A stretch of DNA of 64,000 bases from Candidatus Micrarchaeota archaeon (GTDB lineage: Archaea; Micrarchaeota; Micrarchaeia; Anstonellales; Bilamarchaeaceae). The stretch lies in assembly GCA_018812715.1 (NCBI GenBank), contig JAHJCT010000017.1, positions 204,019 to 268,018 of the forward strand, given 5' to 3'. This document shows positions 11,501-56,028 of the stretch, piece after piece; positions within the stretch are counted from its first letter, which is position 1; each line of letters starts with the position of its first letter. Under the pieces are notes generated by a model that worked only from the letters and a program-made list of their open reading frames with translations, was not told the DNA's origin and did not search any database. The translations under genes and the position numbers were made by a program.

Positions 11501-14500
11501 AATGTTTCAAGTTGTGCCCTTACATTTGGCCTTGAGTATATGCGTCTTAATAAATTCCAATAGCCACTAGTCTCCCCTCTTGCCGTTTGTGCTGTGTCGT
11601 ATAAAGATTTCATGATATCTGCTATTCTCTGAGGACTAGAATTCAACAGGTTTTCAAGTTCTACTGCCTCTGTTCTTGCTGTTTGTGCTTCTTGCTCTGC
11701 AACCCTTATCTCTTCTGGTCTTGCCCCTCCTTCTCTAAGTTCTTCTACTCTGACTTCAAGTTCAGTAGCTCTTGTGCGTGCCCTACTTATTTCTAATTGT
11801 GCCAATTCAGGATCTAATACCATATCCAAAGTATTTCTAACTCCTTCGCCTGTTGTACTAAGTACTTCTTCAGCTTCAGGAAGTTCGGCCCTTGCATTTC
11901 TCTCTACTCTATCGCTTCTCCAATTTTGCCAGCGCTCTCTTCCAAATCTATACATTCGTTCAAAGCGTCCCCATCTTACTTCTGGTATTGGCCGAACTGG
12001 TCCACCACCTCCACCCTGGCCCCCACCAACGGTTGTATCAACAGGACCTATTCCTCCTTGTTGCACTCCTGGTGGCCTTGCTCCTCCCTCTTCAGCCATT
12101 GCTCTTACTTCAGGCATCTGCCTTATCATCATTGGACCTTCGCCTTCAACAAGATGAGGCCTGCGTGCCATTTCACTTGCAACAACATCTTCTATGTAAT
12201 AGTTGTAATCATTCACTGCCATTGCAACAGCTTCAGGTTCAAACATTGCTTCTATTTGTGATCTTGCATTTTCCAAAGCACGTTGTGAAAATGGAGTTGC
12301 TTCTCCAGTTTCAAAGTAATGCCTTACACTTGGATTCCTGATAAGTCCATCTATTATTTCTGCAACTTCAGGATTTTCTGCCCTTATATTCTCTAATGTT
12401 TGTTGTGCTGCAGCTCTATGAACTACATTTTCTCTTGCTGTTGTTCCTTCAGGTGTTAGCAATCCCTCAAGCAGCCAATCCAATCTTCCTGGCTGCAATG
12501 TTCCTGTGCTTTCAACTTCTGTTACTGGTCTTCCGCCTCTTGGCCCTGGCGTTGGAGGTTCTGGGCCTCTGAATATCATATCAATTACACTTGTCATATT
12601 TCCTCGTGCAAGTGGTGTCATTTCTCCTGTTACTAGGGCCTCTGGAACATGCATAAAGCTTGTATTTCCAATGCTGCCCGTCTCCATAAACTGCATTATT
12701 CTTCCTTGTACTTCCTCAGGCAGTGTTCTCAACCGTGCCTGTGCACCATCCCTTACAGTCGGGTCTTCACTTCTCAACTCTCTCATGAATTCAAACATTT
12801 CTTCTGGGGTTCGAAGTCTTTGTGCTTCTCTAACTGAAGGAATTTCATTAGGTTCTATTTCAATTGGAACCTCTCGCGGTTCCGGTGCCCTTATCTCTTC
12901 AGCTACAAGCTCAGTTTCTGTTCTTGCTTCTGTTGTTCCTCTTACTGGTCTGGCTCTCATAGCTTGCCATCCACGTGACCCTGCCATATGTGCCCATGGG
13001 AAAGCGGCCATTGCAGTTAGGAAAATTCCCTCCCGCATATTCCCTTCTGAAAAGGCATCAACTGCATGATATCCCATATATCCTGAGAAACCAACTCCAA
13101 TTCCAATGTTTGTATAATTAAGGGCTCTTACCACTTGTGTCATTCTAGTAGCATATGCAGTTCCTTGTGCAAACTGTGCTTCTGTACGTAAAACGCCTGC
13201 AAGTCCTCCGATACCCATAGTTGCTATTATCCCACCAAACATCAACCACGATGTCCAACTTGCTTCTCCTTGTACCCGGTATTCTGTAACTATCTGATCA
13301 AATGCCATAGTTGCAAAGAGCGACCCACCAAAAAGTTGTCCTCCAGGTACGAGACACGCTACAACCCCAACAGCAGTTAGTCCAACTGTAGTCCAAAATT
13401 GGTGGTCTGCTACTCGTTCCTGCATTCGATCTATGATTGCATTAGCATCATCAAATCTTCCCATGCCAACAAGGGCATATACATTGCCTTGATCGACAGC
13501 ATACTCTGCAAACATCTGGCTTCCTGAATCTGCAGGAATTGCGAATATTGATGCTTCAACAATTCTTGCACCATTCAAATCCAACTGCATTCTCTCTTGT
13601 GATCCAGACCCTCCTCTACCAAAGAGAATATAATGCATCGAATCTGTTTGCATTTCTCTGTAAGCATCCCAATAAGATCTATCTGGTTCGCTTCTCATAA
13701 ATTCTGCAAAATCTTCTGGGAAAAATATTGCCTCTCCTAATCGTTCTGCACCTTCAAGGAAGTTTTCAATACCTGTAGCAGTTAAATTCATCGCACTTCT
13801 TCCTTCATATGATGCCATAGCAGTTATCCTATGATCTATAGCAGCTTCATATGCTTCTTCAGCTTCCTGGAACCTTCCCTCCAAAATAAGATTTTGAGCT
13901 CTTTGCAAATCAGTATTACAATCTCTTAAATTATCTTCTGCTAAACTAAATCTATCTCCACCCCCAATTCTTATCATTCTTAGATATTCATCGTTTACTT
14001 CTATCTGCTGTCCTATCTGTGAATAAGCCATGGCTGCCCTGCTTTCTCCTTGCACTAATTCGAGCAGATAACTCATCACAGTTCCGCCTCTTAGCCCCTC
14101 TCCATATATTGGCAGATCATCTGTAGTATATTCTATCCCATCCATCTGTGTAAGCAGAGCATCTACTTCGGTAGAAAGATATATCACTTGCCTTAATCTT
14201 CCCATCTCAAGGTCTGATACTGCTCCAAATGTCTCTGGATGCTGTTCAATATAATCTGCCATTAAAGAAAGGCCATTGCTTGTTGTAGTAAATGCGCCTA
14301 CATCATGGCCATAATCCCATGCTGTTTGCCAAGCTCTTTCTCCTGTTGTTCCTCCTCCGCACATGTTTATGACATAAGCTCGGAATGCTTCAGTAAGTGC
14401 ATCATTTCCTTGCCTAAGTATTACTTCAGCATCTACTACTGTACTTCGTCTATGCACTCTTGTAGCAATTAATGACAATCGGTTCCAATATGTTTCACTT

Positions 14501-17097
14501 GCTTGTTCATATTCTCTTAAATTTCCACTAAAAGCCGCTTCTCTAAGTTCTTCAAGATCACTTCTTAAGCTATGCAATGGATAATCTCTGGCTATTGTTA
14601 AATCGCGCTCCCCATGACTTCTTTCATAACCTCTTATCTGTTCAGCAGTAACATATGCTGGAAATGTTCCATCCTCATTTCTTTCACCGAGTGGAATTTG
14701 TCCGGCTTCTACACCTTCTGCTATCGGCTCTCTTCCCCAGTAAATACCTGTTAATCTGTTATAATCAGCAATAAGCATTTCTGTTTGTACGATTCTTCTT
14801 GTTCCTCTATCAAACTGTTGTGCAGCTGCATAATGCTCTTCATCTGTTCCTGCATGCATTTCCATTTCTATTGCTTCAAGCATTATCCTTCTGCCTCTTC
14901 TGTATCCATATGGCACTTCTTCAGTTCCTTCTCGAATCATGCGTTCATGAGTAAATAGTTCATATCTCCAGCCTTCCTCTCTTCCTCCTTCAGCTGCACC
15001 ATAATAATCTCTTATATATTGCAGCAATAGATTTGCTCCCCGATAATCTCCAGCTTCGACTCTTTCTCTTACAATTCCTAATGCTTCATTTATTGTTGTT
15101 CTCCCAACTCCTCTTCTTTGTGCAAATGTCTCCAATCTGTTTGCTTCTGCTTCTATGTAAACTATCTGCGCTAAGTTGAAGCTTTCCATGAAGGCACCAT
15201 CATCACCTGGTTCGCCTTGTGCCATAGCCTGCAATTGTGTCTCCATTCCACTTAGGTGTATTGCATTTTCATCCGTAATTCTGGTGACTCTTCCATTGCT
15301 TACTACTCCAAGCCTTTGCACAGAATCAACATACATTGCAAGAAGTGTAAGTACTCTTGCTGCTTCTTGTGCATTCCCTTGTCTTGCAAGTTCTTCTGCA
15401 CGTTCAAGTGTTTGATTTACTATCCCTATCTGGAAAGTCATTCTTCTTGAACTCCAGTTTTCAATCAGTTCTCTGAATTGATCTGTTTCTCCTCTAACCT
15501 GGTGGTAAATCATTCCTATATTGAACTGCTCACTGGCATCTTCTCCTGCCATTTCACTTTGAAGTGCTTGTTCTATTGTTTCGCGTCCTTCCCAATCCCC
15601 CCAGCGATGCCCTTCATTTCTGTCATAATAAAATGAAATCATGTAAAGTAATCTTCTTGCTCCTTCGAAATCACCAAGCTTGAATCTTTCATCTGCAATG
15701 GCTGCTGCATTTCTGATAAGTTCTCTTCTCTCTTGCCCTCTTCTTCCTGTAATTGCTTGGAACCCTTCAATATCTACAAGCATGTGTGCCATGTCCATTT
15801 CAGTTGAATACTGTGCAAGCATTGATGAAGTAGGGCTTCTTCCTTCAATTATTATATTATATATTGTCTGATAACTCGGCAGATAATCTACTGCATGCCT
15901 ATCTAATTGTCTTGCAGACCGTTCAAGCAATCCTAAAGAAATGGCAAGTGCTGCAAGATTTCTATCTCCTCTTTGCAGTGCATCAAGTGCCTGTTGACCA
16001 TACCATTCCGGACTTTCTTCTGTTACTCTTCCTGTTCCACGTAAACTAGTAGCAATCATAGTCAGGTTTGCATCTCTTTCTTCTTCGCTTAATGGCATCT
16101 CTCTTCCAATTGTCATGAAATAGCTGGTTGTAATTCTTTCAAATTCCAACTGACCAATTATTTGTCCTTGTTCAAGTCTTCTGATTATTTCATCTAGTTC
16201 ATGCCTGAGATTTTCCATTTGCTGTCTCATCTGTTCATTTGTCTGTTGTTCTATTGCAAGTGCTATCTCATCTCTCCATTGGCTGAAGACTGTTGTGTTT
16301 ATCTCAGTCCATTGGTCCTTTATTGTTCCTATATTAGCTTCAAAAGACCAAAGCGATTGTCTATCTTCATGTTCCTGTTCACTAGTATACCCAATCCTTT
16401 GCCTCCCCTGGTTTCCTCTCTCCACTATAAAACCAAAGAGTGCATTTCTTTCCATTTCTACAGCTGAATTGTCGATATTGTAAATAGGAATATTCTCAAC
16501 GTACAATCTCCCTGCTTTTAGTACTGCCTCTGCTCTGCCGTGATTTGTTGTTGCAATATCTAATACAGAAGCTTCCAGGCTATCAAAAATAGTTTCAAGT
16601 GCATCTTCTGATTCCACGCCAGGAATCTGAATATTTTCAGGCATGCCCCCCGTTAGCATATGTAATTCTATATCAAATACATCTCCGACTGTTCTGAGCA
16701 TTGCCCTTGATCTTGTTATCATGTGGAATGATGCAGCAATGTTTCCTTCTCCACCAGTTGTTCTTGCATCATTTAATATCTGCTGAACTAAATCGAGTTC
16801 ATCCGTATACCTTTCTCCAAGTATTGGCAGTGCAGTTACTCTTAATCTCACTTGTTCCAATGTTTCTTCTGTTCTTTCTACTTCTGAATTAATGTATTCA
16901 ATAGTTGCATCATCAGGCCTGACAGTTAAGGTTCGCGCATGATCCTGGAGTGCACTAATCTCTCCAAGCACTTCATCCAATCCCTGTTCTAATTCTCTTC
17001 TTTGTTCATCCATTGCTTCTATTCTTGTTGGAATGATTGCAATTGGTAATCGTGTAATCTCCTCCTCTTCAGGTCTTTCTATTGTTGTTCCTCCCAT
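8533..17097 (-). CDS. giant protein B (2854 aa), unknown function, with a central multi-pass hydrophobic block and a conserved C-terminal domain
   Basis: Uninterrupted 8.5-kb ORF with ATG at 17097 and a strong SD. Helical TPR-like repeats (GDYRGANLLLQYIRDYY, GDFEGARRLLYMISFYY, GRFQEAEEAYEAAIDH). About 5 hydrophobic helices around aa 1235-1400. Trp-rich segment AIAWYVIGNYAWDNVLLPWY. C-terminal YRLLTS...YGLTVSGEGE domain shared with the 1463-aa protein. Confidence 0.9.
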   Translation of the reverse strand: MGGTTIERPEEEEITRLPIAIIPTRIEAMDEQRRELEQGLDEVLGEISALQDHARTLTVRPDDATIEYINSEVERTEETLEQVRLRVTALPILGERYTDELDLVQQILNDARTTGGEGNIAASFHMITRSRAMLRTVGDVFDIELHMLTGGMPENIQIPGVESEDALETIFDSLEASVLDIATTNHGRAEAVLKAGRLYVENIPIYNIDNSAVEMERNALFGFIVERGNQGRQRIGYTSEQEHEDRQSLWSFEANIGTIKDQWTEINTTVFSQWRDEIALAIEQQTNEQMRQQMENLRHELDEIIRRLEQGQIIGQLEFERITTSYFMTIGREMPLSEEERDANLTMIATSLRGTGRVTEESPEWYGQQALDALQRGDRNLAALAISLGLLERSARQLDRHAVDYLPSYQTIYNIIIEGRSPTSSMLAQYSTEMDMAHMLVDIEGFQAITGRRGQERRELIRNAAAIADERFKLGDFEGARRLLYMISFYYDRNEGHRWGDWEGRETIEQALQSEMAGEDASEQFNIGMIYHQVRGETDQFRELIENWSSRRMTFQIGIVNQTLERAEELARQGNAQEAARVLTLLAMYVDSVQRLGVVSNGRVTRITDENAIHLSGMETQLQAMAQGEPGDDGAFMESFNLAQIVYIEAEANRLETFAQRRGVGRTTINEALGIVRERVEAGDYRGANLLLQYIRDYYGAAEGGREEGWRYELFTHERMIREGTEEVPYGYRRGRRIMLEAIEMEMHAGTDEEHYAAAQQFDRGTRRIVQTEMLIADYNRLTGIYWGREPIAEGVEAGQIPLGERNEDGTFPAYVTAEQIRGYERSHGERDLTIARDYPLHSLRSDLEELREAAFSGNLREYEQASETYWNRLSLIATRVHRRSTVVDAEVILRQGNDALTEAFRAYVINMCGGGTTGERAWQTAWDYGHDVGAFTTTSNGLSLMADYIEQHPETFGAVSDLEMGRLRQVIYLSTEVDALLTQMDGIEYTTDDLPIYGEGLRGGTVMSYLLELVQGESRAAMAYSQIGQQIEVNDEYLRMIRIGGGDRFSLAEDNLRDCNTDLQRAQNLILEGRFQEAEEAYEAAIDHRITAMASYEGRSAMNLTATGIENFLEGAERLGEAIFFPEDFAEFMRSEPDRSYWDAYREMQTDSMHYILFGRGGSGSQERMQLDLNGARIVEASIFAIPADSGSQMFAEYAVDQGNVYALVGMGRFDDANAIIDRMQERVADHQFWTTVGLTAVGVVACLVPGGQLFGGSLFATMAFDQIVTEYRVQGEASWTSWLMFGGIIATMGIGGLAGVLRTEAQFAQGTAYATRMTQVVRALNYTNIGIGVGFSGYMGYHAVDAFSEGNMREGIFLTAMAAFPWAHMAGSRGWQAMRARPVRGTTEARTETELVAEEIRAPEPREVPIEIEPNEIPSVREAQRLRTPEEMFEFMRELRSEDPTVRDGAQARLRTLPEEVQGRIMQFMETGSIGNTSFMHVPEALVTGEMTPLARGNMTSVIDMIFRGPEPPTPGPRGGRPVTEVESTGTLQPGRLDWLLEGLLTPEGTTARENVVHRAAAQQTLENIRAENPEVAEIIDGLIRNPSVRHYFETGEATPFSQRALENARSQIEAMFEPEAVAMAVNDYNYYIEDVVASEMARRPHLVEGEGPMMIRQMPEVRAMAEEGGARPPGVQQGGIGPVDTTVGGGQGGGGGPVRPIPEVRWGRFERMYRFGRERWQNWRSDRVERNARAELPEAEEVLSTTGEGVRNTLDMVLDPELAQLEISRARTRATELEVRVEELREGGARPEEIRVAEQEAQTARTEAVELENLLNSSPQRIADIMKSLYDTAQTARGETSGYWNLLRRIYSRPNVRAQLETLAETDPVLRDILNRTGRTIESGARNAGISPEDYMAVQAREGFSANDVEVMIRAIEAQRGELAPLLRTQELLGIEYTPLERASLLPRLEGSDIIPPQMLVRELAGVQNSVEGRIREIPIADEPVTNVIRRTLLERSSQGGNVNDVLTEILRSPEVERAVRERYGREAAEIYRDAVQNNRTVDEILNVLEQGRAVEGAEPQFVPREMRTPLEGFVRNISQDPAFAQEFSAINALRPRINQVLDQASTAADVFARDTRPLRDDAINIGWRILRFLNNWEPLTNWGARRFVNSIRNAVPGGRIRAGLRNSPYLIPQAIAWYVIGNYAWDNVLLPWYNSLNSAGSVEEGRRLCERDFGNLCAGASDEDLEWLATEEGRRFFFHMPNALPRGRDRRPGNVEDLNQLLQRTDILIEPRRLGEIVADGREMGGRLDDINDLLSDMRRGDAEDRREAELAAILEPWGLTVDDVQGILSQERKEEVDITDLFDLRIPQWRERGLVIDFRDAVADAFCVDTGLISEGEAESGRYTREGGQRVDFLTSNTDVFAYLWEAVQGGHIPSVYLDNIMNDLTSEGRITELRQQVTSERDIYQVLEAHLRSQNLYIEVIEEDGTVTGIRQNSFLGLLDVRASLDPGFRDTYEQLLNQYRENNEALLAFNAFNIEDIRYGEENRVIGGDAIYGNPQELAALILESETPGEAVEAARQRGFVGSAVLGYMEPRLFDPENAHLVTFIAERSDEERLGFVRWLLDHRDNIRGHVLEIIEDASQHSTVPGPGRYTEIYEYLDRRATVYRSNGWWDGATPAEEQAREERERSRGTVTREETVEPVGEEFEAQYVRRPGFEVMTPRREDQIDVEEVHAPPATLSPEAQRFYANEESTLTPLLDGTIDRMIEARNDDGTLTEDAQAMVNAYGPEINSEDAETRERARDVVRADIKAEMYRLLTSTIDRDMQLREGYGLTVSGEGEGLSVEVDRRTARNGLRNHIMQYVSRRGER

Positions 17098-17101
17098 TTT
17101 T

Positions 17102-17511: not shown

Positions 17512-20500
17512 TTATTCATTTTCTCTGCCTACAAAGCTCAGAGTGTGTCTCTCTATGCCTCTTCTGGCTCTTCCCATATCTGTTATTTGAACAGCGAACT
17601 CTTCGCCTTCACCACTTACAGTGAGTCCATAGTCAGTACGGTGCTGTACGTCCCTTCGTATATCACTTGTAAGAAGTCTATACCACTCTGCTCTTATTGC
17701 CATTTCAGTTTGTTCTCTGTTCCCTTCAAATGCACTTCTTAGCAATTGACCGTCTTCTCCTTCATCAGTGAAGAGCCTTTCCAGGGTTCCGTCCAACATG
17801 CTGTTAAAGTCATTTTCAATAGTATAGAACTGTTGAGCCTCAGCGTTCAATTCTGTACCACTTCTCTCAGTTCCAGTTCCTCTAAATCTTTCTACTTCAT
17901 TGATGTATCCTGTATCAACAGCCCACTGTACACGAACACCTTGTGGATCTGAGAATGGATTATAGTCAGATACATTTCCACCATCTGCTTTGTGCCTTTG
18001 CAGTTCTTCAACAAATTCTTCAAGACGGTATCTGTTGAGTCTGTATCGTGCACCTCTGGTATCGACAAAGCTTGTCAGGAGCTCTCTTATATCCTGGTTT
18101 GTTGGCGCAAGAAGAGTGTATGCCATGCTATCTGAAATATCAAATTCAGAAAGTTCTCTTCTTAACTCCCTTCTTGCATATTGTTCAGAGGTATCTTCAA
18201 CCCATCCATTTGTTCTTGCAGTTGCCATTGCTTCATTGAATGTTTCTTCTAACATTACATCAGTTACAGGAACACGTCTTGTTTGCAATGTTTGTCCTTC
18301 CCCAGCTCTTGCTTGTGTTTTTTCTTCCCAAAGAGTAACAAATGCTTCTCTATTTTCTGGTTTGAGGTACTCGGTATGCTCTCCCCTTTCAGCCACTAAT
18401 GGAAGCATAAGTCTTCCTACTCTATCTCTTCCTTGTGCAAAGACAAAATCCACTAATCCAAGATCTGCTATATTATAATTATCCATTACTCTTTCTTGTT
18501 GCTCAGATACGAGGAATCCTCTTTCTACCCATTGCCTTGTATGTTCATTCATATAGTCATAGTCAACTGTTGCCCTCGTTCCCTCTTGTGCCATTAAATA
18601 ATCAACAAATTCATTTGTCATATTCCTGTTGAGTTTAAGGCCATCGGTTATCACAGTATATTCTACATCGATTATACAACAGAACTGATTTCCTGATTCC
18701 CATTCATCTTCAATTGCTAGTGGTTCCCAGTTTTCTACATCATCCATACTTTCAATACCAAGTTCTCTGCATGAATTAGGTATTACTAATCCCGGTGTTG
18801 CTGGAGGCCTTTCAACTGCTTCTCCTGTTCCCTCGGCTACTTCATTAGTTCCTTCAGCTACCTCGCCAGTTCCTTCTGCATTTTCTTCTCTAGGCGGAGG
18901 TTGTGCTCTAGAGGTAGAACCTGCACTTGTTTCCTGAGAACAATTAGCTATGTCATCATCATCCAGTTCGTTTACATCTCTAACATGTTTCAATGTTCTT
19001 CTCTCTTGGAAGAATGTAAGAACACCTTCATTATCATGTTCAACTTGATTATCCCTTAGCCAGTCTAATCTTTCCTCACCTGTAACTCCATATGCAGTTG
19101 TGTAATAACTATCCTCTCTTTCTGCAAGTCGTTCTGGAATGTCGTAACTATCATTTATCATTCTCTTATTTGAGAGCTCACCTTGCATCGGAGACCACCA
19201 TTCCCAAGGTGCTCGGTCGAAGTGGTTTCCAAAATGATTAAAGCTCCAACGCCATGGCATCGCATTCCATGAGAATGGATTGTACCAATGACCTGTAGTT
19301 GATGTACCAATGCGATAGGTCCAAGGTTTGTACCATGCTCCGTTTGGTGTTGTTGTCATCCATTCATTTGGTGATGTGAACCATGCAACACCAAAAGATC
19401 CTATCAAGTATGCTTTGAGTGCTCCTTTCCAAAGTCCCCTCAACCATCTCGGGTAATGTTGGTATGTGTGAGCCTTTCCTGTAATTGGATTTCTACCAAC
19501 AACTTGCTTATTCCAATTTCGTTTCTTAAGATCATCAACTGTTTCTCCAAAGCCCCAACTTGAAAGTCTTCTAAGACGCCCACCTCTAAAATTACCTTGT
19601 GACTTTCCTATCCATGCTTCGCTTGTAAATAATCTCCAGAACCATTTATCTTTGAACTTTTGCCATTTTCCTACAGTTACTTTTGGAGACGGATCCCAGC
19701 TTTCTTTTGTAGCTTCCCAGATCGTTCTTGCTATAACAAATTGACCTTGAGGTATTTCACCTAAGTTTTCAGCAGTTCTTTTATGAAGCATTTCAACTGA
19801 TTTTTCAGCTGCTTTTCCTAATGGCTTGGAATACTTATTTTCTATTTTTACCAGCATCTCTTCTAATGAAGCACGAGGATACTTTCTAGTTTCTATTGCC
19901 TTTACAACTGTCAGCATTCTTTTTCTTACTTCATCAGGCAATTCTGCTCCTTCTACTTTTGTTCTTAATGCAGTTGCTTTTGTATCAAATGCTTCAAGCT
20001 TATATCTGAAAAGTTCTTCGCTTTCACCTTTACCTTTTCGTTCTTGTATCACTGCATCATATTCTGCTTTAGTAATACTTCTTGCTCTAAGCAGTTCATC
20101 CAATTGTTCTGCAGTTTTTGTTCTCAATCCTTGTTCTGTTGAAGGAATACCAAACAATTGCTGGCAGTCGTCCATACGATCAAGAACTTTCTTTGTATCT
20201 TTCATCAATTCACTGATAACTGGATTGCCTAGCCACTCTCCTGCTCTATTTGGAAGTTCATGAATTAATTCTGTACTCACTTCTCTGCAGTCAAGCATAT
20301 GCTTTTTGAAGTTTTCAGAGTATGTCCGTACTACATTTTCAAATCTGCCATTTTCAGTTCCTTGTATTCCACCTAATTCTGCTGAAAGTGTATCAAATAT
20401 TTCTTTTGCTTGAGTATACTCGTCCTCTATTCTCGCCCCCCTAGCAGACAAACTCAGTCCACGGGTATTAAATTCACTAATTCGCTGTCTTGCAATTACT

Positions 20501-21903
20501 AATTCTTGTTCTGCAGTATCCTTCTCTTCAGTAGCTTTTCTTTCTGCATCCTCAATCTGTTTTTGTGTTGCTTTTGCCTTTCCTTCTGCAACAAGCTGTT
20601 TTAGTTTTACAACTTTATCATACTGTTCTGTTTTTTCTACAACAGTTGCTTCGGCTCGTTCAACCAGTCTCTCTGCATCTGCCCTTTCGTTTCTAAATTC
20701 TGAAATTTCGTCATCTATTGCATCTACTCTTGCTGCACTTTCTTCCATGACGCTTTCAGCAGCAGCTCTCCGTACCATCATGTCTTCAACAGTTTGTCGT
20801 TGGCTTGGTCTGCATGGTCCAAATCCTTCAACATCAACAAAATGACCTGTTCCTGGAATACCTAGCCCTTCAACTGTCTCATTTGTAGGTGTTAAAAGAA
20901 TTGCACGAACGAATTGCCTGAAATTATCTGCAGCCATATCTATTGCTATAGATGTTCTTGATTCAAGATAAGCATCCACATAACTTCCATCAAGTACACG
21001 ACGATTAGTTTCTTGAGTATTCTCCGAGTCCATGCTTCTGGTCCCAGAAAGTTGCTTTAAAACACTACCTATGAATTCTCCTTCTTTTCCTGGGCTGAGT
21101 CTTTGTGCGACATTTTCAAGAAATCTAAAGAATGCGTCTGGAGGTAACGCTACTCCTTCTGGCCATGTTTCATGAGTCCACAATGATTCATATAATTTAT
21201 CTCCCCTTTCATCTCTTACACAATTTCCTTGTTCATCTTCTTGCTCAATCGGATTCCCCTTATCATCTAATTTAAATCTAGATCCGATCATTTGCGAATA
21301 AATAATATCAATTCTATCAGCATCAAAATCTTCGACTCTTCCTTCACTTAACTCTTGAGCAAGTCTTTGCCTTACGGCATACATTCTTTCTGCATACGCA
21401 GTATCAAGTTCTTCAAGCGGTGTCGGCACCGTCGGTTTCTTCAACCCATCAATAAATTCTTTTCTGCATACAATCTCTCTTATAAGCATATCAAAGCCAG
21501 AACTTGTCCTGCCCTGTCCTCTTCGTATTGCATCTACCAATTCTAATGTAAATTTAGTCAAATACTCTGCATTTGCTGTATCAGCACCGCTTTGCGGGGT
21601 TCCTCCGGCACCATGCCGTGTATCTTTATCTTGCCCTCGTTCTCCTCTCAGTTCTTTTAATCTTTCTTCTTTAGCAAATTCAATTCTTGCGTCTTTATCT
21701 GCTCTTTTTCGAGCTTTATGATCTTTTCTTAATTCAGGACTTAATGCAGCCCCCAGAACGGGCACTCTCTCTGCCATATATTTGTAACTCTTTGCAGAGC
21801 GACTTTCTCCACCTCTTGCCCAATCAAATACTCTTTGCCTTATACCAGCTTTCTCAGCCTGTTTATCTCTTCCCTGAGCCCTATCTATAACACTACCCGT
21901 CAT
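17512..21903 (-). CDS. giant protein C (1463 aa), unknown function, with coiled-coil N-terminal part, extremely Trp-rich segment and conserved C-terminal domain
   Basis: ATG at 21903 with GGAGG 12 nt upstream. About 18 Trp in ~150 aa (KWQKFKDKWFWRLF...PWRWSFNHFGNHFDRAPWEWW). C-terminal AEWYRLLTSDIRRDVQHRTDYGLTVSGEGE matches protein B. Confidence 0.9.
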   Translation of the reverse strand: MTGSVIDRAQGRDKQAEKAGIRQRVFDWARGGESRSAKSYKYMAERVPVLGAALSPELRKDHKARKRADKDARIEFAKEERLKELRGERGQDKDTRHGAGGTPQSGADTANAEYLTKFTLELVDAIRRGQGRTSSGFDMLIREIVCRKEFIDGLKKPTVPTPLEELDTAYAERMYAVRQRLAQELSEGRVEDFDADRIDIIYSQMIGSRFKLDDKGNPIEQEDEQGNCVRDERGDKLYESLWTHETWPEGVALPPDAFFRFLENVAQRLSPGKEGEFIGSVLKQLSGTRSMDSENTQETNRRVLDGSYVDAYLESRTSIAIDMAADNFRQFVRAILLTPTNETVEGLGIPGTGHFVDVEGFGPCRPSQRQTVEDMMVRRAAAESVMEESAARVDAIDDEISEFRNERADAERLVERAEATVVEKTEQYDKVVKLKQLVAEGKAKATQKQIEDAERKATEEKDTAEQELVIARQRISEFNTRGLSLSARGARIEDEYTQAKEIFDTLSAELGGIQGTENGRFENVVRTYSENFKKHMLDCREVSTELIHELPNRAGEWLGNPVISELMKDTKKVLDRMDDCQQLFGIPSTEQGLRTKTAEQLDELLRARSITKAEYDAVIQERKGKGESEELFRYKLEAFDTKATALRTKVEGAELPDEVRKRMLTVVKAIETRKYPRASLEEMLVKIENKYSKPLGKAAEKSVEMLHKRTAENLGEIPQGQFVIARTIWEATKESWDPSPKVTVGKWQKFKDKWFWRLFTSEAWIGKSQGNFRGGRLRRLSSWGFGETVDDLKKRNWNKQVVGRNPITGKAHTYQHYPRWLRGLWKGALKAYLIGSFGVAWFTSPNEWMTTTPNGAWYKPWTYRIGTSTTGHWYNPFSWNAMPWRWSFNHFGNHFDRAPWEWWSPMQGELSNKRMINDSYDIPERLAEREDSYYTTAYGVTGEERLDWLRDNQVEHDNEGVLTFFQERRTLKHVRDVNELDDDDIANCSQETSAGSTSRAQPPPREENAEGTGEVAEGTNEVAEGTGEAVERPPATPGLVIPNSCRELGIESMDDVENWEPLAIEDEWESGNQFCCIIDVEYTVITDGLKLNRNMTNEFVDYLMAQEGTRATVDYDYMNEHTRQWVERGFLVSEQQERVMDNYNIADLGLVDFVFAQGRDRVGRLMLPLVAERGEHTEYLKPENREAFVTLWEEKTQARAGEGQTLQTRRVPVTDVMLEETFNEAMATARTNGWVEDTSEQYARRELRRELSEFDISDSMAYTLLAPTNQDIRELLTSFVDTRGARYRLNRYRLEEFVEELQRHKADGGNVSDYNPFSDPQGVRVQWAVDTGYINEVERFRGTGTERSGTELNAEAQQFYTIENDFNSMLDGTLERLFTDEGEDGQLLRSAFEGNREQTEMAIRAEWYRLLTSDIRRDVQHRTDYGLTVSGEGEEFAVQITDMGRARRGIERHTLSFVGRENE
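18820..18882 (-). repeat. three tandem 21-bp units encoding (V)AEGTxE heptads inside giant protein C
   Basis: Plus-strand units ttctcctgttccctcggctac / ttcattagttccttcagctac / ctcgccagttccttctgcatt. Protein reads AEGTGEVAEGTNEVAEGTGEA. Confidence 0.7.
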
Positions 21904-30796: not shown

Positions 30797-33700
30797 ATGT
30801 CATCTATACGATGCGCTATGAGTAGATCGTTGTTATTACTGGTTCTAAGTGTATTATTGCTCTCAAGTTTTGCTTTTGCTGCAACTCTTGAAGTTACTAC
30901 AGGCACAAGTTGTGTTGGTTCTCCTGATGGAACATTCACAACGATCCAGGCTGCAATAAATAACGCATCTACTGGTGATGTAGTAATTGTGTGTGATGGC
31001 ACGTATACAGAAAATGTTGAAGTGAACACATCGATAAACCTATCAGGTGAAACTCCTGATGTTACTGTTGTAGCTTTCAATGATACATTACCTGCAATTA
31101 CTACTTATGCCAGCAATGTTAACATTACTAATTTTACTGTTACTGGTGCAGATGGCATTGGTGATTATTCATGCGGATTATTAGTAGGCCGAGTATTAAC
31201 TGGCAAATTTCCTGATACTGAAAATGTTACTGTCTATAATGTAATAGCAGAAGATAATGATAATGGATTTTGTGTTTATGATGATACTGTTTCTTTGGTT
31301 GGTCTTGTAAATGTAACAGCAGATGGAAATGATATCGGCATTTTTCTAACATCATTGTCTACTACTTATGGTCCAAATTATGTGTTTGTAATTAATTCTA
31401 CCATGACTGACAACGCAGTTGGATTAAAGCTCTATAGAACTAATTATACATTTGTATATAACAACACATTTTATGCCAACAATCGTGATGCGGGCCATTT
31501 CGATATTTCAGGTGGATTTGGCGTATGGTCACAATCGCATGTAAGAAATCTTGATTTCATGTATAATAATATCTCTGAGAATGATGCTGGTTTTCTTGCT
31601 GGCTGTGATTGGCCTTGTATAACTCTTGGAGAACACCTGGCTGATGCAAGAATAGCTTTCAATAATTTCACTGATAATGTAATGTTGTCACTTGTAATGG
31701 ATCAGGATCATATTGATCCGTCTTCTCCTATAAATGTCACTGGAAATCGTTTTACTGGCGATACATTATTCCATTTTGTTACAGATGATATGTACAATCT
31801 TACTGTAGCTGATAATTATTTCAGCGATGCTGTAGCCTGTATTGGTTTTGGCTTTACCTCAGGACCGGTAGATATTTTTTCGAACTACATAACTGATTGC
31901 CAGGTTGGAATGGCTTTCTTAGAGCTTGAAGAAAATACATTGTTTGTGTATGACAATGAACTTGTTAACAATTACTTCAATTTTGGTGTTCTTTCAGCCT
32001 TTGGAAGCGGATATATCCAGAATATATCTACTAACAATACAGTTGATGGCAAGCCAATCTATTACTTTGTCAATGGGACCACTGGAGATGGAAATACTAA
32101 TTTCAATCCTGTTCCTGCAGATGCCGGATATGTGGCTTTAATTCTTACAAATAATTCAAGAGTTGAAAATCTCTTATTAGAACATAATATTAACGGGTTA
32201 GTTGCTCTCGAGTCAGTCAATGTCACTGTTGATAATGTAAGCATGGTGACTAATTTTTGGGGGGCATTCCTGGGAACAGTTAATTCTACTTATAGTAATG
32301 TAGAAATTAGCGACTGTAATAATCCTGTTATCACCCCATACCTGTCAACATATCTTGGTTATTTCATGTGCGGTTTGATTACAGCAGCATTCAACAATAC
32401 GTACAATAATTTTTCAATCTATGACCAGGAGGAGTGTTATCTTCTTGCAATGAATGCAACTGGATATCAAGGTTGGGCCCCTGGTTGGGGAGATACGATC
32501 TACGCAAACAACTTCACCATCGGTTATACTGAAACCACTGGTCTTATCAATTACAGATACTTTGAAATTCACGGCGGCGGATCAAGTACAATGAACCTCA
32601 CATGGCTTGTCCCAAAAGATCTTTCATTATTTAATGCAACAGTTTTACTAGATGACTTTATTGTCTTGATAAACGACTCTGATCCTGCAGTTGAACCTTA
32701 TTTCGAAAACCCGGCGAATGTTACATTATTGGGGGCTGGCTGTCCTTTGACATATTACAATGTAACTGGTTTCCCAACAACTGAAGCAGCCATACTCACA
32801 GCCGCAACAGAATTTACTCCAAATATCATCTCAGCTTGTAATGGCGGGCTAACAACCTTTGAAGTTCCTGGATTTACTGGCTATTTTGTTGCTGGACCAG
32901 AAGATGATGAAGATGATGGGGAGAATCAGATATCATTAGATTATGAAAGACTGGAATGTCCAGAAAATGGAGTTTTATTAACTGCAACTCGTGGCAATAC
33001 GGTTCTTTCTAATGTTGAATTTAGAGTTTTATTCAATAGTTTATTCTATGATCTTATTCCATCTGCACCTGGAGAGTATCAACTTATGCTAACTGCAGAA
33101 GGGGATTATGATATTACTGCAAGAAAGAGCAGTTACAACGATGACAGCGTTTCATTTACTTTTGAACTCTGTGAAGTAGATGAAACACATTTAGCGTGTG
33201 TGAATTCTGCATGTGTTAGAGTGAGTGGTGCTGGTGAAAACCTCTGTTCCTCAAGTGCAGATTGTGAAGAAACCCCAGTATACGAATGCTATTCAGATGG
33301 CGATTGCGATGATGCATACTTCTGTGATATTCCAGCAGGACAAATCGGAGGAACATGCGAACCAGTAACTGGCGAATGCGGCTATCCACAAAATCATACC
33401 TGGGTGCAATATGAATGTGGCAATGAAGTGGGATGTCAGCCATGCCCAGAAGGAGAAGTTTGCGTAAATCATGTATGTGCTGAAAGATTACTTACTGGTC
33501 CTGAAACCGGCTTTGTAGGAGACAATGTAACACTCAATGGAAAAGAAAACGGTGGGCCGTGTGCACTTTGTGATGTTGTCATACTTAATCCTGTGGGCGA
33601 AACCCTCTACGGCAAAACAAATACTAATGGTGATCTTAATCTTCCGTTAACTATGAAAGGAAATTATTCCATTGGTCTTCTTGCTCCAGATGGTGCAATC

Positions 33701-33862
33701 GTATCAACAATAATTGTTGAAGCACTTCCAAAGGCCCAACCTTCAGAACCATCAAAACCAACACAAGAAATGCCACCTGACTATACCTGGCTTTGGTTCT
33801 TGATTTTACTCCTGATATTGGCAGCAGCATTCTTCTATTTGAGAAAAAGAGGCAAAAAATGA
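30797..33862 (+). CDS. large surface protein: signal peptide, right-handed parallel beta-helix (PbH1/NosD-like) repeats, beta-sandwich, Cys-rich module, C-terminal TM anchor
   Basis: N-term MSRSLLLLVLSVLLLSSFAFA (start 30797 or 30818). TIQAAINNASTGDVVIVCDGTYTENVEV start of the beta-helix. Many NxS/T sequons. C-terminal WLWFLILLLILAAAFFYLRKRGKK. Confidence 0.8.
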   Translation: MSSIRCAMSRSLLLLVLSVLLLSSFAFAATLEVTTGTSCVGSPDGTFTTIQAAINNASTGDVVIVCDGTYTENVEVNTSINLSGETPDVTVVAFNDTLPAITTYASNVNITNFTVTGADGIGDYSCGLLVGRVLTGKFPDTENVTVYNVIAEDNDNGFCVYDDTVSLVGLVNVTADGNDIGIFLTSLSTTYGPNYVFVINSTMTDNAVGLKLYRTNYTFVYNNTFYANNRDAGHFDISGGFGVWSQSHVRNLDFMYNNISENDAGFLAGCDWPCITLGEHLADARIAFNNFTDNVMLSLVMDQDHIDPSSPINVTGNRFTGDTLFHFVTDDMYNLTVADNYFSDAVACIGFGFTSGPVDIFSNYITDCQVGMAFLELEENTLFVYDNELVNNYFNFGVLSAFGSGYIQNISTNNTVDGKPIYYFVNGTTGDGNTNFNPVPADAGYVALILTNNSRVENLLLEHNINGLVALESVNVTVDNVSMVTNFWGAFLGTVNSTYSNVEISDCNNPVITPYLSTYLGYFMCGLITAAFNNTYNNFSIYDQEECYLLAMNATGYQGWAPGWGDTIYANNFTIGYTETTGLINYRYFEIHGGGSSTMNLTWLVPKDLSLFNATVLLDDFIVLINDSDPAVEPYFENPANVTLLGAGCPLTYYNVTGFPTTEAAILTAATEFTPNIISACNGGLTTFEVPGFTGYFVAGPEDDEDDGENQISLDYERLECPENGVLLTATRGNTVLSNVEFRVLFNSLFYDLIPSAPGEYQLMLTAEGDYDITARKSSYNDDSVSFTFELCEVDETHLACVNSACVRVSGAGENLCSSSADCEETPVYECYSDGDCDDAYFCDIPAGQIGGTCEPVTGECGYPQNHTWVQYECGNEVGCQPCPEGEVCVNHVCAERLLTGPETGFVGDNVTLNGKENGGPCALCDVVILNPVGETLYGKTNTNGDLNLPLTMKGNYSIGLLAPDGAIVSTIIVEALPKAQPSEPSKPTQEMPPDYTWLWFLILLLILAAAFFYLRKRGKK

Positions 33863-34707: not shown

Positions 34708-35181
34708 ATGAAGGCCATACTTTTCGAGCCGAAATACCAGAAAGCAGTGCTTGAACTGAACGAACTTGCATTGAAACGATCGAAATACATAGGAAAAACA
34801 GTGGACTCTAACTGGCACGATGATCTCGTAAAAATAAAGGAATTATATTTGGATAATAATGGTGCTTTTTTGCTATGGCTTGTTGGTGACAAGCTAATAG
34901 GAATGGGTGGTCTTCTCAAAGTTGATACAAATACCGCCAATATCAAGAGAATAAGGGTACATCCAGATTACCAGCATAAAGGATTATCTAGCGAAATTTT
35001 AGCAGAACTGGAAAAGAGAGCGAGGGTGCTTGGTTATAATCGACTAATCACAAACGTTGCTAAAGGCAACATCCCTGCAGAAAAAATGTTTCTTAAAGCT
35101 AATTTCAAACCAGTTGAAGAAAAACATTTCTTTTCTGTACTCTGCACTGTTTTTGAAAAAAAGTGCGAAGTACTTTATTAA
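34708..35181 (+). CDS. GNAT family N-acetyltransferase
   Basis: IRVHPDYQHKGLSSEILAELEKRA (R/QxxGxG/A-type acetyl-CoA motif). TTTATA box about 27 nt upstream of the ATG. Confidence 0.75.
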   Translation: MKAILFEPKYQKAVLELNELALKRSKYIGKTVDSNWHDDLVKIKELYLDNNGAFLLWLVGDKLIGMGGLLKVDTNTANIKRIRVHPDYQHKGLSSEILAELEKRARVLGYNRLITNVAKGNIPAEKMFLKANFKPVEEKHFFSVLCTVFEKKCEVLY

Positions 35182-35207
35182 CCTGGCGTTGAATCCCAGA
35201 ACTGCAA
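35181..35207 (+). repeat. degenerate copy of the tRNA-Glu 3' end (T-arm/acceptor)
   Basis: acctggcgttgaatcccagaactgcaa compared with the tRNA acctgggttcgaatcccagacgcagca. The blocks acctgg and gaatcccaga are identical at the same spacing (17 of the first 20 nt match). Confidence 0.45.
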
Positions 35208-35269
35208 TCCGTTTAGGATTTGCTGAATACAAACACAGTATTATATTAAACAAACCCATATTTTTGATT

Positions 35270-36175
35270 ATGCGAATTTTTCTTTTCCTTTTCTTAATTT
35301 CTCTTACATTTGCAGCAAATGTAACTCCATTTCTTAATTTAGAATTAGAAACTAGTTGTCCAGGCAATTTCCTCAACATAACAACCATCTTATCTAATGG
35401 TACAGCGGCAGCAGATGTAGAACTTCGACTTGTACGTCATATTCCCTATCAAGGCCTTCGTGCTATTCAACATACTAATGAAAATGGGACAGCATCTGTA
35501 GAATTAACAAACACAGGTGAATATCGTATCTACATTGAAAACAGCGATTACTACAATAGTGATACATTTGTAGAGTTCAATTACTCTGAGATGTGTCCTC
35601 TTCCTCCTCCAGAAGAGTTTAATCTCTCTATTGAAGTAAATTGCAATGCCAGCATCCTCAAAATAACTGCAAGTAAAGATGGAATCCCATTGGAAAATGT
35701 TTTCATAAACACACAGAATTGGTCTTCTCTCACCGGAACTACTGGAACTGTTTTCTTTCTGCTTGAAGAAGGTTGGACTTTGATACGTGCAAATAAATCT
35801 GGATATGTTTACAAAGAATCAATTATAAACATAGTTTGCACACCGCCAGAATGCATTACAGATGAGAATTGCACCTATAATCAATATTGCTTCAATGAGA
35901 GTTGCATCAATCTCACTGGTGTATGTGGCTATCCAGAAAATCATTCATGGATTGGATATGAGTGCTGTGAAGATGGGGGTTGTGAAATGAATTTTGTATG
36001 TCTGAATAACAGCTGCATTTCATTGCCTCCACAGCCTGAAAATATAAACAATGTTTCCCTAAACCAAACTGTCTCTCAAGAAGAACCTGCAGAACCCCCC
36101 TGTATTGCGGCATTATTGCTACTATTTATTTTGCTATTGACCACTTTATTGAACTACGTTCAATATGCGCCTTGA
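35270..36175 (+). CDS. secreted/anchored glycoprotein-like protein: signal peptide, beta-sandwich domains, Cys-rich module, C-terminal hydrophobic anchor
   Basis: MRIFLFLFLISLTFAANV signal peptide (the track N-terminal extension from 35057 overlaps the GNAT gene). About 16 NxS/T sequons. CGYPENHSWIGYECC module. C-terminal PCIAALLLLFILLLTTLL. Confidence 0.7.
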   Translation: MRIFLFLFLISLTFAANVTPFLNLELETSCPGNFLNITTILSNGTAAADVELRLVRHIPYQGLRAIQHTNENGTASVELTNTGEYRIYIENSDYYNSDTFVEFNYSEMCPLPPPEEFNLSIEVNCNASILKITASKDGIPLENVFINTQNWSSLTGTTGTVFFLLEEGWTLIRANKSGYVYKESIINIVCTPPECITDENCTYNQYCFNESCINLTGVCGYPENHSWIGYECCEDGGCEMNFVCLNNSCISLPPQPENINNVSLNQTVSQEEPAEPPCIAALLLLFILLLTTLLNYVQYAP

Positions 36176-36548: not shown

Positions 36549-36569
36549 ATTATTATAACGAAATTCTCC

Positions 36570-54519: not shown

Positions 54520-56028
54520 ATGACGAGAAGAGAGGCTATAGATTATATCATAGACAGACTCATTGCTGGAGAGGAGGATCTAGGGCAAATAAAACGCGAA
54601 GCAGGAAACAAATTCAAGATCTCATCAATGATAACAAATCCAGAGATTCTTGCACAGTTTCCAGCTTCAAAACTCACTTCAAAAATAAAAGATATGCTGA
54701 TAAAAAAACCAACAAAAACCATCTCAGGAGTCACACCTGTTGCTGTAATGATAAAGCCTCAAGATTCTTGCAAATATGCCTGCATTTACTGCCCATTTAC
54801 AGGGCTTGCTGCAAAAAGTTATCTAGGTTATGAGCCTGCTGCTTTACGGGGAAGAAATTTCTCTTTTGATCCTTACATGCAAGTTTCAAGCAGAGCAGAG
54901 CAATTTGAAACGGGTGGCCATGCAACTGATAAATGCGAAGTCATAATCATGGGTGGCACATTCCTAGGTATGGACAAAAACTACAAAGAATATTTCATAA
55001 AAGGCGTTTATGAGGGCCTTAATGGAAAGAGATCTCATACGCTTCAGCATGCAATCAAAACAAATGAAACAGCAAAACACCGGGTAATTGGCCTTACAAT
55101 TGAAACCAGACCAGATATGTGCTCTCAATACATAGATGAAATGCTTTCTTATGGCGCTACGCGTGTAGAATTAGGAGTACAGCATGCTGATGATGAAATC
55201 TATAAAATCATAAATCGTGGGCATACAACTGCTGATGTCATAAGTGCAACAAGAGATCTGAAAGATGCAGCATTCAAGGTTCTTTATCACATCATGCCTG
55301 GCCTTCCTGGTTCTAATATGAAAAAAGATATTGCTTTTGTAAAAAAACTCTTTAATGATAAGAATTTCAGGCCAGACATGCTCAAGATATACCCTACTCT
55401 TGTTGTGGGTGGCACTGTCTTACAAAAATGGGCTGAAGAAGGTAAATACAATCCATACACTACAGAAGAGGCGGCAGAAGTAATCTCTGAATTCTACCGT
55501 TATATCCCCAAATATGTTAGGGTAATGCGCATCCAAAGAGACATTCCTGCTGGCAGAATAAATTCAGGTGTAAGAAAAAGTAATCTAAGAGAGCTTGTAG
55601 AAGCAAAACTTAGAGAAAAAGGCATCATTCCGCAGGAAATACGTTATAGGGAAGTAAAAAGAAAACACATCAAACTTGCTGATTTTGAACTAAAAAGATT
55701 AGATTACGAAGCAAGTCAAGGTAAGGAAATTTTCTTATCATATGAAAATGAAAATCTTATTGCAGGGTTTCTAAGATTAAGGTTTCCTCAAGAAACTTCA
55801 GTTGCATTTGTAAGAGAATTGCATGTTTACGGTTCTGAAGTTCCAATAAGTGGAAATGGGAAAGTCCAGCACAAAGGTTTTGGCTCAAAATTATTACAAG
55901 AAGCTGAAGAAATAGCAAAAGAAAATGGAAAAGAAAAAATGCTAATTATTAGCGGCGTGGGTGTAAGGCCATATTACTCAAAATACGGCTATTCATTTTC
56001 AGGATCTTACATGTGTAGGAACCTATGA
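54520..56028 (+). CDS. elp3: Elp3-like radical SAM/GNAT tRNA uridine(34) modification enzyme
   Basis: CKYACIYCP radical-SAM cluster motif and a C-terminal GNAT domain (HKGFGSKLLQEAE). Confidence 0.85.
   Translation: MTRREAIDYIIDRLIAGEEDLGQIKREAGNKFKISSMITNPEILAQFPASKLTSKIKDMLIKKPTKTISGVTPVAVMIKPQDSCKYACIYCPFTGLAAKSYLGYEPAALRGRNFSFDPYMQVSSRAEQFETGGHATDKCEVIIMGGTFLGMDKNYKEYFIKGVYEGLNGKRSHTLQHAIKTNETAKHRVIGLTIETRPDMCSQYIDEMLSYGATRVELGVQHADDEIYKIINRGHTTADVISATRDLKDAAFKVLYHIMPGLPGSNMKKDIAFVKKLFNDKNFRPDMLKIYPTLVVGGTVLQKWAEEGKYNPYTTEEAAEVISEFYRYIPKYVRVMRIQRDIPAGRINSGVRKSNLRELVEAKLREKGIIPQEIRYREVKRKHIKLADFELKRLDYEASQGKEIFLSYENENLIAGFLRLRFPQETSVAFVRELHVYGSEVPISGNGKVQHKGFGSKLLQEAEEIAKENGKEKMLIISGVGVRPYYSKYGYSFSGSYMCRNL

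Follow-up and report, generated by a model that had tools for sequence, protein, structure and literature searches.

A cysteine-rich module in the surface proteins of DPANN archaea represents an undescribed domain family

The closest described counterparts of the element reported here are short extracellular modules stapled by disulfide bonds. The DPY module of Drosophila Dumpy (PF21164; 1OIG in the Protein Data Bank (PDB)) has the cysteine spacing Cx5Cx5Cx4C, and the architecturally similar CREMP module has a C1-C3/C2-C4 connectivity (PMC12723725). CREMP and EGF-like tandem modules are small disulfide-stapled β-hairpins that build extended arrays with sparse inter-module contacts and have structural roles (PMC12723725). 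Dumpy itself is an animal protein that carries 185 DPY copies among EGF modules. A comparable architectural logic, in which a spacer close to the membrane or wall carries a functional head, is found in the stalks of giant bacterial adhesins and surface-layer (S-layer) proteins such as SiiE, GhpA, SbsB, and EA1. In this study, we analyzed a 64,000-nucleotide stretch of DNA from Candidatus Micrarchaeota archaeon (assembly GCA_018812715.1, contig JAHJCT010000017.1, positions 204,019 to 268,018; hereafter the window), in which three proteins, P1, P2, and P3, carry a shared cysteine-rich module. This module represents an undescribed domain family that is characteristic of the surface proteins of DPANN archaea. 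The surface proteins of these archaea, which live attached to other cells, are presumed to form the interface with the host; to our knowledge, almost none of them has been characterized.

The three copies had been pointed out in a preliminary description of the window made from the DNA sequence, and the peptides quoted there were found exactly, in long open reading frames (ORFs) and in the frames given, at the module positions in Table 1. BLASTP similarity between the modules was far beyond chance (P1/P2, 9e-11; P2/P3, 4e-10), and P1 and P3 aligned at 1e-24 across approximately 500 C-terminal residues, which establishes that the three copies are truly homologous, as had been proposed. Several details required revision. 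The module contains ten cysteines in P1 and P2 and 12 in P3 rather than eight; a start at 33166 takes in a degenerate remnant of P1 (residues 791-829) that lies upstream of the module proper; and the proteins cannot be called otherwise different because P1 and P3 both contain a β-helix (Pfam Beta_helix, 2.8e-7 for P1 and 2.3e-88 for P3; NosD on P3, 1.6e-53) in addition to their common C-terminal part. P1 and P3 are paralogous β-helix proteins. P3 is identical to NCBI MBU0532497.1, and P1 is identical to MBU0532467.1 except that the latter entry has a later start; both entries belong to a metagenome-assembled genome of Candidatus Micrarchaeota archaeon. No fourth copy of the module was found in the 64-kb window. 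All three proteins have an N-terminal signal peptide and a C-terminal transmembrane (TM) helix, and their density of N-x-S/T sequons is 1.35 to 5.3 per 100 residues (3.3 in P1, which has 34 sequons and a C-terminal anchor cassette, and 5.3 in P2) versus 0.47 in the cytoplasmic genes of the window. By these features, P1, P2, and P3 are type-I anchored extracellular glycoproteins.

A profile built from the three copies was run in an index-free HMMER search over protein representatives clustered at 50% identity and matched 852 clusters at E ≤ 1e-3; of these, 368 also passed E ≤ 1e-10, and 14 passed E ≤ 1e-30. The matched proteins were 189 to 7114 residues long, and most had two to six matched stretches. 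The detailed statistics below refer to the 153 top representatives, 148 of which contain the CG...NH.[WC]..Y.C core, and to the 283 core units in these 148 proteins. Members are named "hypothetical protein," "Uncharacterised protein," or "right-handed parallel beta-helix repeat-containing protein," and the named organisms among them are all Micrarchaeota (including Ca. Norongarragalina), apart from one Myxococcota cluster. Word-indexed protein searches with the three-copy and 90-copy alignments gave no match, which reflects the limit of the index for a short cysteine-rich query and not absence of the family; each of the 153 known members has three or more 5-mers in common with the 90-copy query.

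The taxonomic distribution was examined with a hand-made degenerate DNA pattern for CG....NH.[WC]..Y.CC, which was scanned over one genome per GTDB species. The scan gave at least 119 loci, and 115 of those listed hold an ORF matching the module profile. Among the matches listed, all 115 true loci were archaeal: about 74 came from Micrarchaeota, including Bilamarchaeaceae and Anstonellales (a count of locus titles), six from Woesearchaeota, six from Aenigmatarchaeota, three from Iainarchaeum, one each from Nanoarchaeota and Altiarchaeales, and 24 from unclassified archaea, with several genomes contributing three to five loci. In this sample, the module family is restricted to DPANN and occurs above all in Micrarchaeota. 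The preliminary description had called disulfide-rich modules uncommon in archaeal surface proteins; inside DPANN, the present module is frequent and occurs in multiple copies per genome. The pattern also matched four bacterial loci (Legionellaceae, Chitinophagales, Saccharibacteria, and Nitratireductor), which lack a module ORF and are at about the level of chance (rough estimate, about three). Two pattern matches in viral contigs share one 63-residue stop-to-stop ORF that aligns weakly with part of the profile (13.9 bits, profile positions 28-49), and these were likewise judged to be chance. No conserved operon partner emerged: among the matches listed, the commonest neighbor family occurred in eight of the 115 module-bearing loci.

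The module is about 60 residues long, and nine of its columns are invariant among 90 homologues. Its overall cysteine spacing is Cx5Cx5Cx4C...C-x12-CC-x4-C-x5-C-x4-C, and the core reads [VIL]-x-[G/C]-x-C-G-Y-[IVA]-x-N-H-x-[W/C]-[VI]-x-Y-E-C-C-x-D-x-D-C-x2-G-x2-C-x-N-[HN]-x-C. The N-terminal four-cysteine cap (unit A; ECxxDxDCx5Cx4C) and the last 22 residues (unit A') are homologous, aligning with each other over all 22 columns (hhalign, E = 1.8e-6). Both units have the spacing C-x5-C-x5-C-x4-C in P1 to P3, with two departures in P1, where the last spacing of unit A is x10 and the middle x5 of unit A' is x8. The module is thus a composite of a DPY-like unit, a hairpin CGYxxNHx[W/C]xxYE, and a second DPY-like unit. 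Units with four cysteines are already known in kind, in contrast to the hairpin and to the fixed combination. In tandem arrays, the repeating unit consists of the hairpin and the second four-cysteine unit (37 residues with six or eight cysteines), and the spacing of successive units within a protein is 37 residues in 36 cases and about 60 when a cap precedes. The P1 module is accordingly divided into a four-cysteine unit, the hairpin CGYPQNHTWVQYE, and a four-cysteine unit with a relocated cysteine, CGNEVGCQPCPEGEVCVNHVC.

The cysteines vary in a regular manner. Relative to the cysteine of the CG pair, positions -2 and +8 are both Cys in 126 units; 103 units have Gly/Trp and 12 have Gly/Cys at these positions, and the combination Cys/Trp does not occur. 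P3 (C-type) is in the Cys/Cys state and P1 and P2 (W-type) are in the Gly/Trp state. An extra disulfide would thus appear, from this covariation, to substitute for a Gly-Trp contact, and in P3, where CECGVVQNHEC replaces TGxCGYxxNHxW, an extra disulfide pair is predicted. The CC doublet is changed to CG in 35 units, and 34 of these gain an extra cysteine as CxxC, suggesting that the partner of the CG cysteine was relocated; P1 is of this type. A core unit contains six cysteines in 130 cases, eight in 124, and an odd number in 24 (even, 254/278). Gain and loss in pairs, with parity kept, argues for disulfides and not metal sites. We infer five (or six) disulfides, with C1-C3 and C2-C4 pairs in each four-cysteine unit, by analogy with the similar two-disulfide CREMP module, and a bond from the CG cysteine to the second cysteine of CC. 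In proteins with two modules, a C-type module is mostly followed by a W-type module (Cc-Wg in 29 and Cc-Wc in 18).

A three-hairpin fold was predicted with confidence. The AlphaFold2 model of the P2 module, computed with 90 homologous modules, had a mean predicted local distance difference test score (pLDDT) of 95.3 and comprised β-hairpins at residues 15-24, 30-39, and 52-61, with a short helical turn before the first and the third. Foldseek gave no match to this model at E ≤ 0.001; the sub-significant matches were the N-terminal region of Dkk4, the DPY module, and the EETI-II knottin. The P1 cassette (residues 710-985, 32 sequences) was modeled with a mean pLDDT of 89.1, and within it the module reached 91 to 96 (model residues 121-186). 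The sandwich ahead of it is all-β (pLDDT 84-96, model residues 1-80), as is the second sandwich (97-98, model residues 187-268), whereas the degenerate remnant between the first sandwich and the module was poorly predicted (49-68, model residues 81-120).

No named domain covers the whole module: nothing reached the Pfam-A cut-off in the isolated modules, the three whole proteins, or 59 homologues, and no NCBIfam match reached its cut-off in the window proteins or homologues. The PDB held no significant match by sequence or fold, and full-text searches on cysteine-rich, disulfide, and β-helix proteins of DPANN and Micrarchaeota found no description of the module. The earlier failure to recognize a named domain therefore stands for the module as a whole, but its four-cysteine halves are of a known kind, as the DPY spacing, the likeness to TIGR04201, and near-threshold scores show. 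Among homologues, the best Pfam scores were 21.8 bits for DUF7107 (cut-off, 24.6) and 18.3 for Dumpy_DPY (cut-off, 27); for Dumpy_DPY, P2 scored 15.6 and P3 13.8, and P1 gave no match. The likeness to Dumpy DPY lies in the identical Cx5Cx5Cx4C spacing of both flanking units. The 24-residue DPY module 1OIG was the only sequence match of the profile in the PDB (on unit A, E = 0.0023), and Foldseek superposed it on the module model with a root mean square deviation of 1.5 Å over 23 columns at 39% identity. Both DPY and the DPANN units would be small extracellular β-hairpin modules with two disulfides that occur in tandem in large surface or matrix proteins. Unlike in Dumpy, however, two units are permanently joined in the archaeal domain by an extra 15-residue hairpin (CGYxxNHxWxxYE) and a predicted fifth disulfide, and the domain occurs in one to five copies beside a TM anchor. 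CREMP and EGF modules differ in spacing (Cx4Cx5Cx8C) and gave no sequence or fold match.

The 22-residue NCBIfam repeat TIGR04201 (Myxo_Cys_RPT) matched the four-cysteine cap units of members at 23.7 bits against a cut-off of 25 (E = 3.6e-5), but did not match the window proteins at E ≤ 1. The one Myxococcota protein retrieved by the module profile (P0124, MBU1431097.1) consists of tandem ECxxDxDCxxGxxCxxGxC units and lacks the central CGY..NH.W..YECC hairpin of the archaeal module. Its residues ~35-900 hold 21 matched stretches with a period of ~24 residues, an array which indicates that the four-cysteine mini-unit exists as a free-standing repeat in Myxococcota (cf. TIGR04201). CysRRep (bioRxiv 10.64898/2026.06.07.730663) was also considered and was set aside because its spacing, Cx6-9Cx5-7Cx8-11Cx7-8CC, differs.

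The module is part of a larger anchoring cassette. In two alignments of homologues (A3 and A4), the consensus order is a β-sandwich, a C-type module, a W-type module, a β-sandwich with PCxxC, a linker, a TM helix, and a basic tail. In P1, the consensus cassette is present with a decayed first module: its remnant lacks the central hairpin, homologues have a full C-type module at that place, and the second β-sandwich is kept in the A3/A4 consensus. P2 and P3 each carry a single module, and a Pro/Glu-rich linker (helical-looking in P3) and the TM helix come directly after it; P2 as a whole comprises a signal peptide, two β-sandwich-like regions, the module, a Pro/Glu/Gln-rich linker, and the TM helix. 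The preliminary description had the linker and anchor follow the module in all three proteins; in P1, the extra β-sandwich intervenes. A phmmer search with the P1 cassette segment matched 128 of the 153 representatives, and many of the top matches span its residues ~113-275, that is, the module and the second β-sandwich. A C-terminal TM helix was found in 133 of the 153 representatives, with at least two Lys or Arg residues after it in 127 of these 133, and the median distance from the end of the last module to the C-terminus is 124 residues.

The regions N-terminal to the cassette are diverse. In a Pfam census of 49 members (E ≤ 1e-5), Beta_helix/NosD was found in 24, CarboxypepD_reg in 19, Big_13 in nine, and DUF11 in five, along with other immunoglobulin (Ig)-like domains, PKD, and more, and no Pfam model covered the cysteine module in these members. 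As an architecture, a conserved cassette that bears different ectodomains thus has good support, which upholds the earlier proposal of a membrane-proximal cassette beneath varied ectodomains. The sandwich ahead of the module had been called CarboxypepD_reg-like. A β-sandwich is predicted there in P1 by the AlphaFold2 model, but the family assignment is sub-threshold in the window proteins: CarboxypepD_reg (PF13620) scored 15.1 bits (E = 0.029) in P3 and 14 in P2 and did not match P1, against a cut-off of 32.3. The P3 and P2 sandwiches are homologous (BLASTP, 5e-9), P2 gave weak CarboxypepD_reg and transthyretin matches, and for the P1 sandwich Foldseek returned only generic tandem Ig-like adhesin and S-layer domains. 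The complete P1 cassette resembles the stalks of GhpA, SiiE, SbsB, and EA1 as a beads-on-a-string array of β-sandwiches of a generic tandem Ig-like type; four Foldseek matches had E ≤ 0.001 (GhpA and SiiE chains, best 2.4e-5), followed by SbsB (3.7e-3) and EA1 (4.3e-3). These matches are limited to the flanking β-sandwiches, however, and the adhesin and S-layer stalks have no cysteine-rich module.

Some features of the segment between the module and the membrane were observed in addition. Residues 1067-1163 of P3 (56540-56830, minus strand) form an Ala/Glu-rich segment that looks helical by eye, contains DASAAINAAEEAGKNVTAALEYYALAEEAFEAGDYKAAKEYA, and lies between the module and the TM helix. 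The same type of motif, G.NVT.A...L..A..AF..G.Y..A, recurs, sometimes duplicated, in other members (P0020 and P0007). The helical-looking segment occupies the place of the second β-sandwich in P1-type members and gave faint Pfam matches only (DUF1771 and DUF4398). A lone unpaired cysteine stands exactly at the start of the TM helix in P2 (36101-36103; EPPC-IAALLLL) and in P3 (Cys1164; 56537-56539, minus strand; EFPC-ITLFLVL), and 43 of the 133 homologues with a TM helix have a cysteine at this position, for example DLC-LPGIII and GIC-WYWW. This residue could be a sorting signal, a lipidation signal, or the site of an intermolecular disulfide. No NCBIfam CTERM model of an archaeosortase-type signal (PGF-CTERM and relatives) matched, and no PGF/PEF-type motif precedes the TM helix, where the residues are PDYTW in P1, EPPC in P2, and EFPC in P3.

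Taken together, the most plausible reading, which we regard as probable though far from certain, is that the module is an unnamed extracellular disulfide-rich domain that acts, within a cassette of DPANN surface proteins, as a spacer or stalk under exchangeable ectodomains. In such a stalk, two four-cysteine hairpin units would flank a third hairpin, whose cysteine would be tied to the second cysteine of CC or, in the P1 type, to the relocated CxxC cysteine. The cassette runs from a β-sandwich through the modules (one or two, up to several), frequently a second β-sandwich, and a Pro/Glu-rich or helical linker to the TM helix and basic tail. The compact, cross-linked module would be rigid and protease-resistant and would keep β-helix/NosD-like, Ig-like, DUF11, or other ectodomains at a constant distance from the membrane, probably reaching through the S-layer or above it. 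A different chemistry would apply if the cysteines and the conserved His were ligands of Zn, Fe, or Cu in a small metal-binding domain. Many of the host metagenome-assembled genomes come from anoxic sediment or groundwater, P1-type copies have a CxxC motif, the His is nearly invariant, and the ectodomains are often NosD-like, a family with the Pfam description "periplasmic copper-binding protein"; small archaeal "dark" domains with eight conserved cysteines have also been read as metal-binding (PMC13607799). However, exchange of a cysteine pair for Gly and Trp would destroy a tetrahedral metal site, and the strictly pairwise gain and loss, with the even counts given above, speaks against metal ligands, as do the secretion and glycosylation of the proteins and the spacing, sequence, and predicted local structure that the four-cysteine units share with DPY, which is described as a two-disulfide module (PMC12723725). 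Metal binding is very unlikely on these grounds. Membership in a described eukaryote-type cysteine-rich family (EGF, follistatin/Kazal, Dickkopf, WAP, EB, DUF7107, or CysRRep) would be suggested by weak Pfam matches to DUF7107 (E = 0.007), Dumpy_DPY (0.016), Dickkopf_N (0.14), EB (0.47), and WAP (5.6) and by the N-terminal region of Dkk4 as the top Foldseek match (E = 0.98). All of these Pfam matches of the isolated modules fall below the gathering score, with 7.5 to 17 bits against 20.8 to 27 (Dickkopf_N, PF04706, 7.5-13 against 25; DUF7107, PF23416, 10.2-17.1 against 24.6). DUF7107, Dumpy_DPY, and EB cover one four-cysteine unit only, Dickkopf_N spans the module at 13 bits, and the central CGYxxNHxWxxYE hairpin has no counterpart in EGF, Kazal, Dickkopf, WAP, EB, DUF7107, or CysRRep. 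EGF and follistatin-like families, which the preliminary description had named as examples of identities that would overturn its claim, did not appear even at E ≤ 10 in the isolated modules (no EGF, Kazal, or FOLN match) or at E ≤ 1e-5 in 49 homologues, and we consider a known family of this kind highly improbable.

The exposed central hairpin might instead be a binding site, in which Tyr, the Asn/Asp-His turn, Trp, and Tyr-Glu recognize a glycan or a component of the host or S-layer, so that the domain would help DPANN archaea attach to their hosts or dock to the S-layer. Of the 283 units, 276 have the His, 269 have Tyr11, and 241 carry Asn or Asp at position 5. Aromatic and polar residues are typical of carbohydrate-binding sites; the family is restricted to ectosymbiotic DPANN lineages, and the several module copies that are common in these proteins could give avidity. 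The Trp, however, is freely replaced by a cysteine that covaries with a second cysteine (126 C/C versus 103 G/W units), which suggests that it acts as a packing residue and not as a ligand contact, and the flanking four-cysteine hairpins have the N-[H/N] turn as well (position 28: His in 124 and Asn in 105 units), which points to a structural role of the turn. The module is also membrane-proximal, under much larger ectodomains, and shows no similarity to carbohydrate-binding module or lectin families beyond an insignificant rhamnose-lectin match (E = 0.036); a binding function is possible but unlikely. A combined reading, in which a stalk invented by DPANN archaea and central to their ectosymbiotic cell surface also docks an S-layer or host component through its nearly invariant His/Tyr hairpin, is folded by an extracytoplasmic oxidative route not yet known or by oxidants from the host or environment, and uses the TM-start cysteine, present in about one-third of the members, as part of a new sorting or lipidation signal, seems decidedly unlikely. 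Its folding component derives from the abundance of the module in anaerobic, genome-reduced archaea without recognizable Dsb or VKOR machinery. Several points weigh against the stalk reading that we prefer. The spacer role is deduced from position and analogy, and the conservation of the His and Tyr in the central hairpin goes beyond what a plain spacer would appear to require. Many source habitats (sediment and groundwater) are anoxic, where extracellular disulfides are harder to make, and no thiol-disulfide oxidoreductase was found in a scan that covered all but two of the window ORFs of at least 150 residues. Among the 852 clusters, those with lower scores may include proteins with generic four-cysteine units only (cf. 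P0124), and the taxonomic picture is that of a sample of genomes.

The proteins marked by the module form at least 852 clusters when grouped at 50% identity, and a genome contains several of the genes; a family entry would fill a gap in Pfam and InterPro. Its presence independently of the variable heads makes the profile a practical means of enumerating the DPANN "surfaceome," and its short length and very high-confidence prediction should make it easy to express and solve. The family raises the question of how extracellular domains with multiple disulfides are produced by archaea that have reduced genomes and are often anaerobic, and the Cx5Cx5Cx4C unit common to the myxobacterial repeats and the DPY of insect Dumpy raises that of convergence or an old mobile mini-module.

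Table 1. Positions of the three module-bearing proteins and their parts in the window.
Feature	Position	Strand	Description
P1 ORF	30797..33862	+	1021 aa; secreted β-helix surface protein
P1 β-sandwich ahead of Cys region	32924..33166	+	aa 710-790
P1 degenerate Cys-rich remnant	33167..33283	+	aa 791-829 (39 aa), ELCEVDETHLACVNSACVRVSGAGENLCSSSADCEETPVY
P1 module	33284..33481	+	aa 830-895; W/"CG...CxxC" type; 10 Cys
P1 second β-sandwich	33482..33727	+	aa 896-977; conserved PCxxC motif; canonical cassette part
P1 C-terminal TM helix	33788..33859	+	WLWFLILLLILAAAFFYL, basic tail RKRGKK
P2	long ORF 35057..36175, real ATG at 35270 giving MRIFLFLFLISLTFA	+	301 aa, secreted
P2 module	35849..36019	+	canonical W/CC type, 10 Cys; ECITDENCTYNQYCFNESC-INLTGV-CGYPENHSWIGYE-CCEDGGCEMNFVCLNNSC
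P2 C-terminal TM helix	36101..36151	+	lone Cys at start, PPCIAALLLLFILLLTTLL
P3 ORF	56459..60028	-	1189 aa; secreted parallel β-helix (NosD-like) surface protein
P3 β-sandwich ahead of module	57053..57220	-	aa 937-992; sub-threshold CarboxypepD_reg-like match
P3 module	56831..57001	-	aa 1010-1066; C-type, 12 Cys
P3 C-terminal TM helix	56483..56539	-	lone Cys at start, FPCITLFLVLAVVVGVAYLVL; basic tail SRRGKKR

The genes for P1, P2, and P3 do not form a cluster but are scattered among archaeal housekeeping genes. Their neighbors include genes for aspartate/ornithine carbamoyltransferase, thymidylate kinase, a GNAT acetyltransferase, the signal recognition particle (SRP) RNA, a RIO/APH-type kinase that we take to be Bud32-like, an M50 peptidase, CDC48, an SRP54-type GTPase (FtsY-like), prefoldin, eIF-6, fibrillarin, tRNA-intron endonuclease, and HerA; the ORF at 54520..56028 is presumably Elp3-like, an assignment made by eye only. 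The thymidylate kinase gene (33793-34425) directly follows the P1 gene, and among the matches listed, a thymidylate kinase gene (cluster representative L073) also lies within the 8-kb locus of a module gene in six other archaeal loci. This adjacency may mark a conserved syntenic orthologue of P1. The SRP RNA (36296-36550, minus strand) lies between the P2 gene and the RIO/APH-type kinase gene, and in Rfam it matches RF01854, the large SRP model of bacteria, over the full length (65.2 bits) despite the archaeal genome.

A small ORF (56031-56540, minus strand) is located directly downstream of P3, and its listed 5' end overlaps the 3' end of the P3 gene. Its likely real start, MMKKFIILGILLLASVGFA, resembles a signal peptide, no Pfam match was obtained, and the product may be a secreted partner of P3. 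On the other side, separated from P3 by one unannotated ORF (60062..60853), an ORF of 562 residues (60789-62477, minus strand) encodes a membrane-anchored Lon-like protease, in which a Lon_C proteolytic domain (E = 8.4e-10) is combined with a TM helix and basic tail at the C-terminus (VVLLFLFIIIVLIMRTYGNQRKGYRKPNRAKQKKGRV). Elsewhere, the minus strand of the window (6968-21903) carries two giant ORFs of 2854 residues (8533..17097) and 1463 residues (17512..21903) whose C-terminal ends are similar (YGLTVSGEGE...R..G...H). A 521-residue ORF (6968..8533) adjoins them, and all three are poor in cysteine and have no Pfam match.

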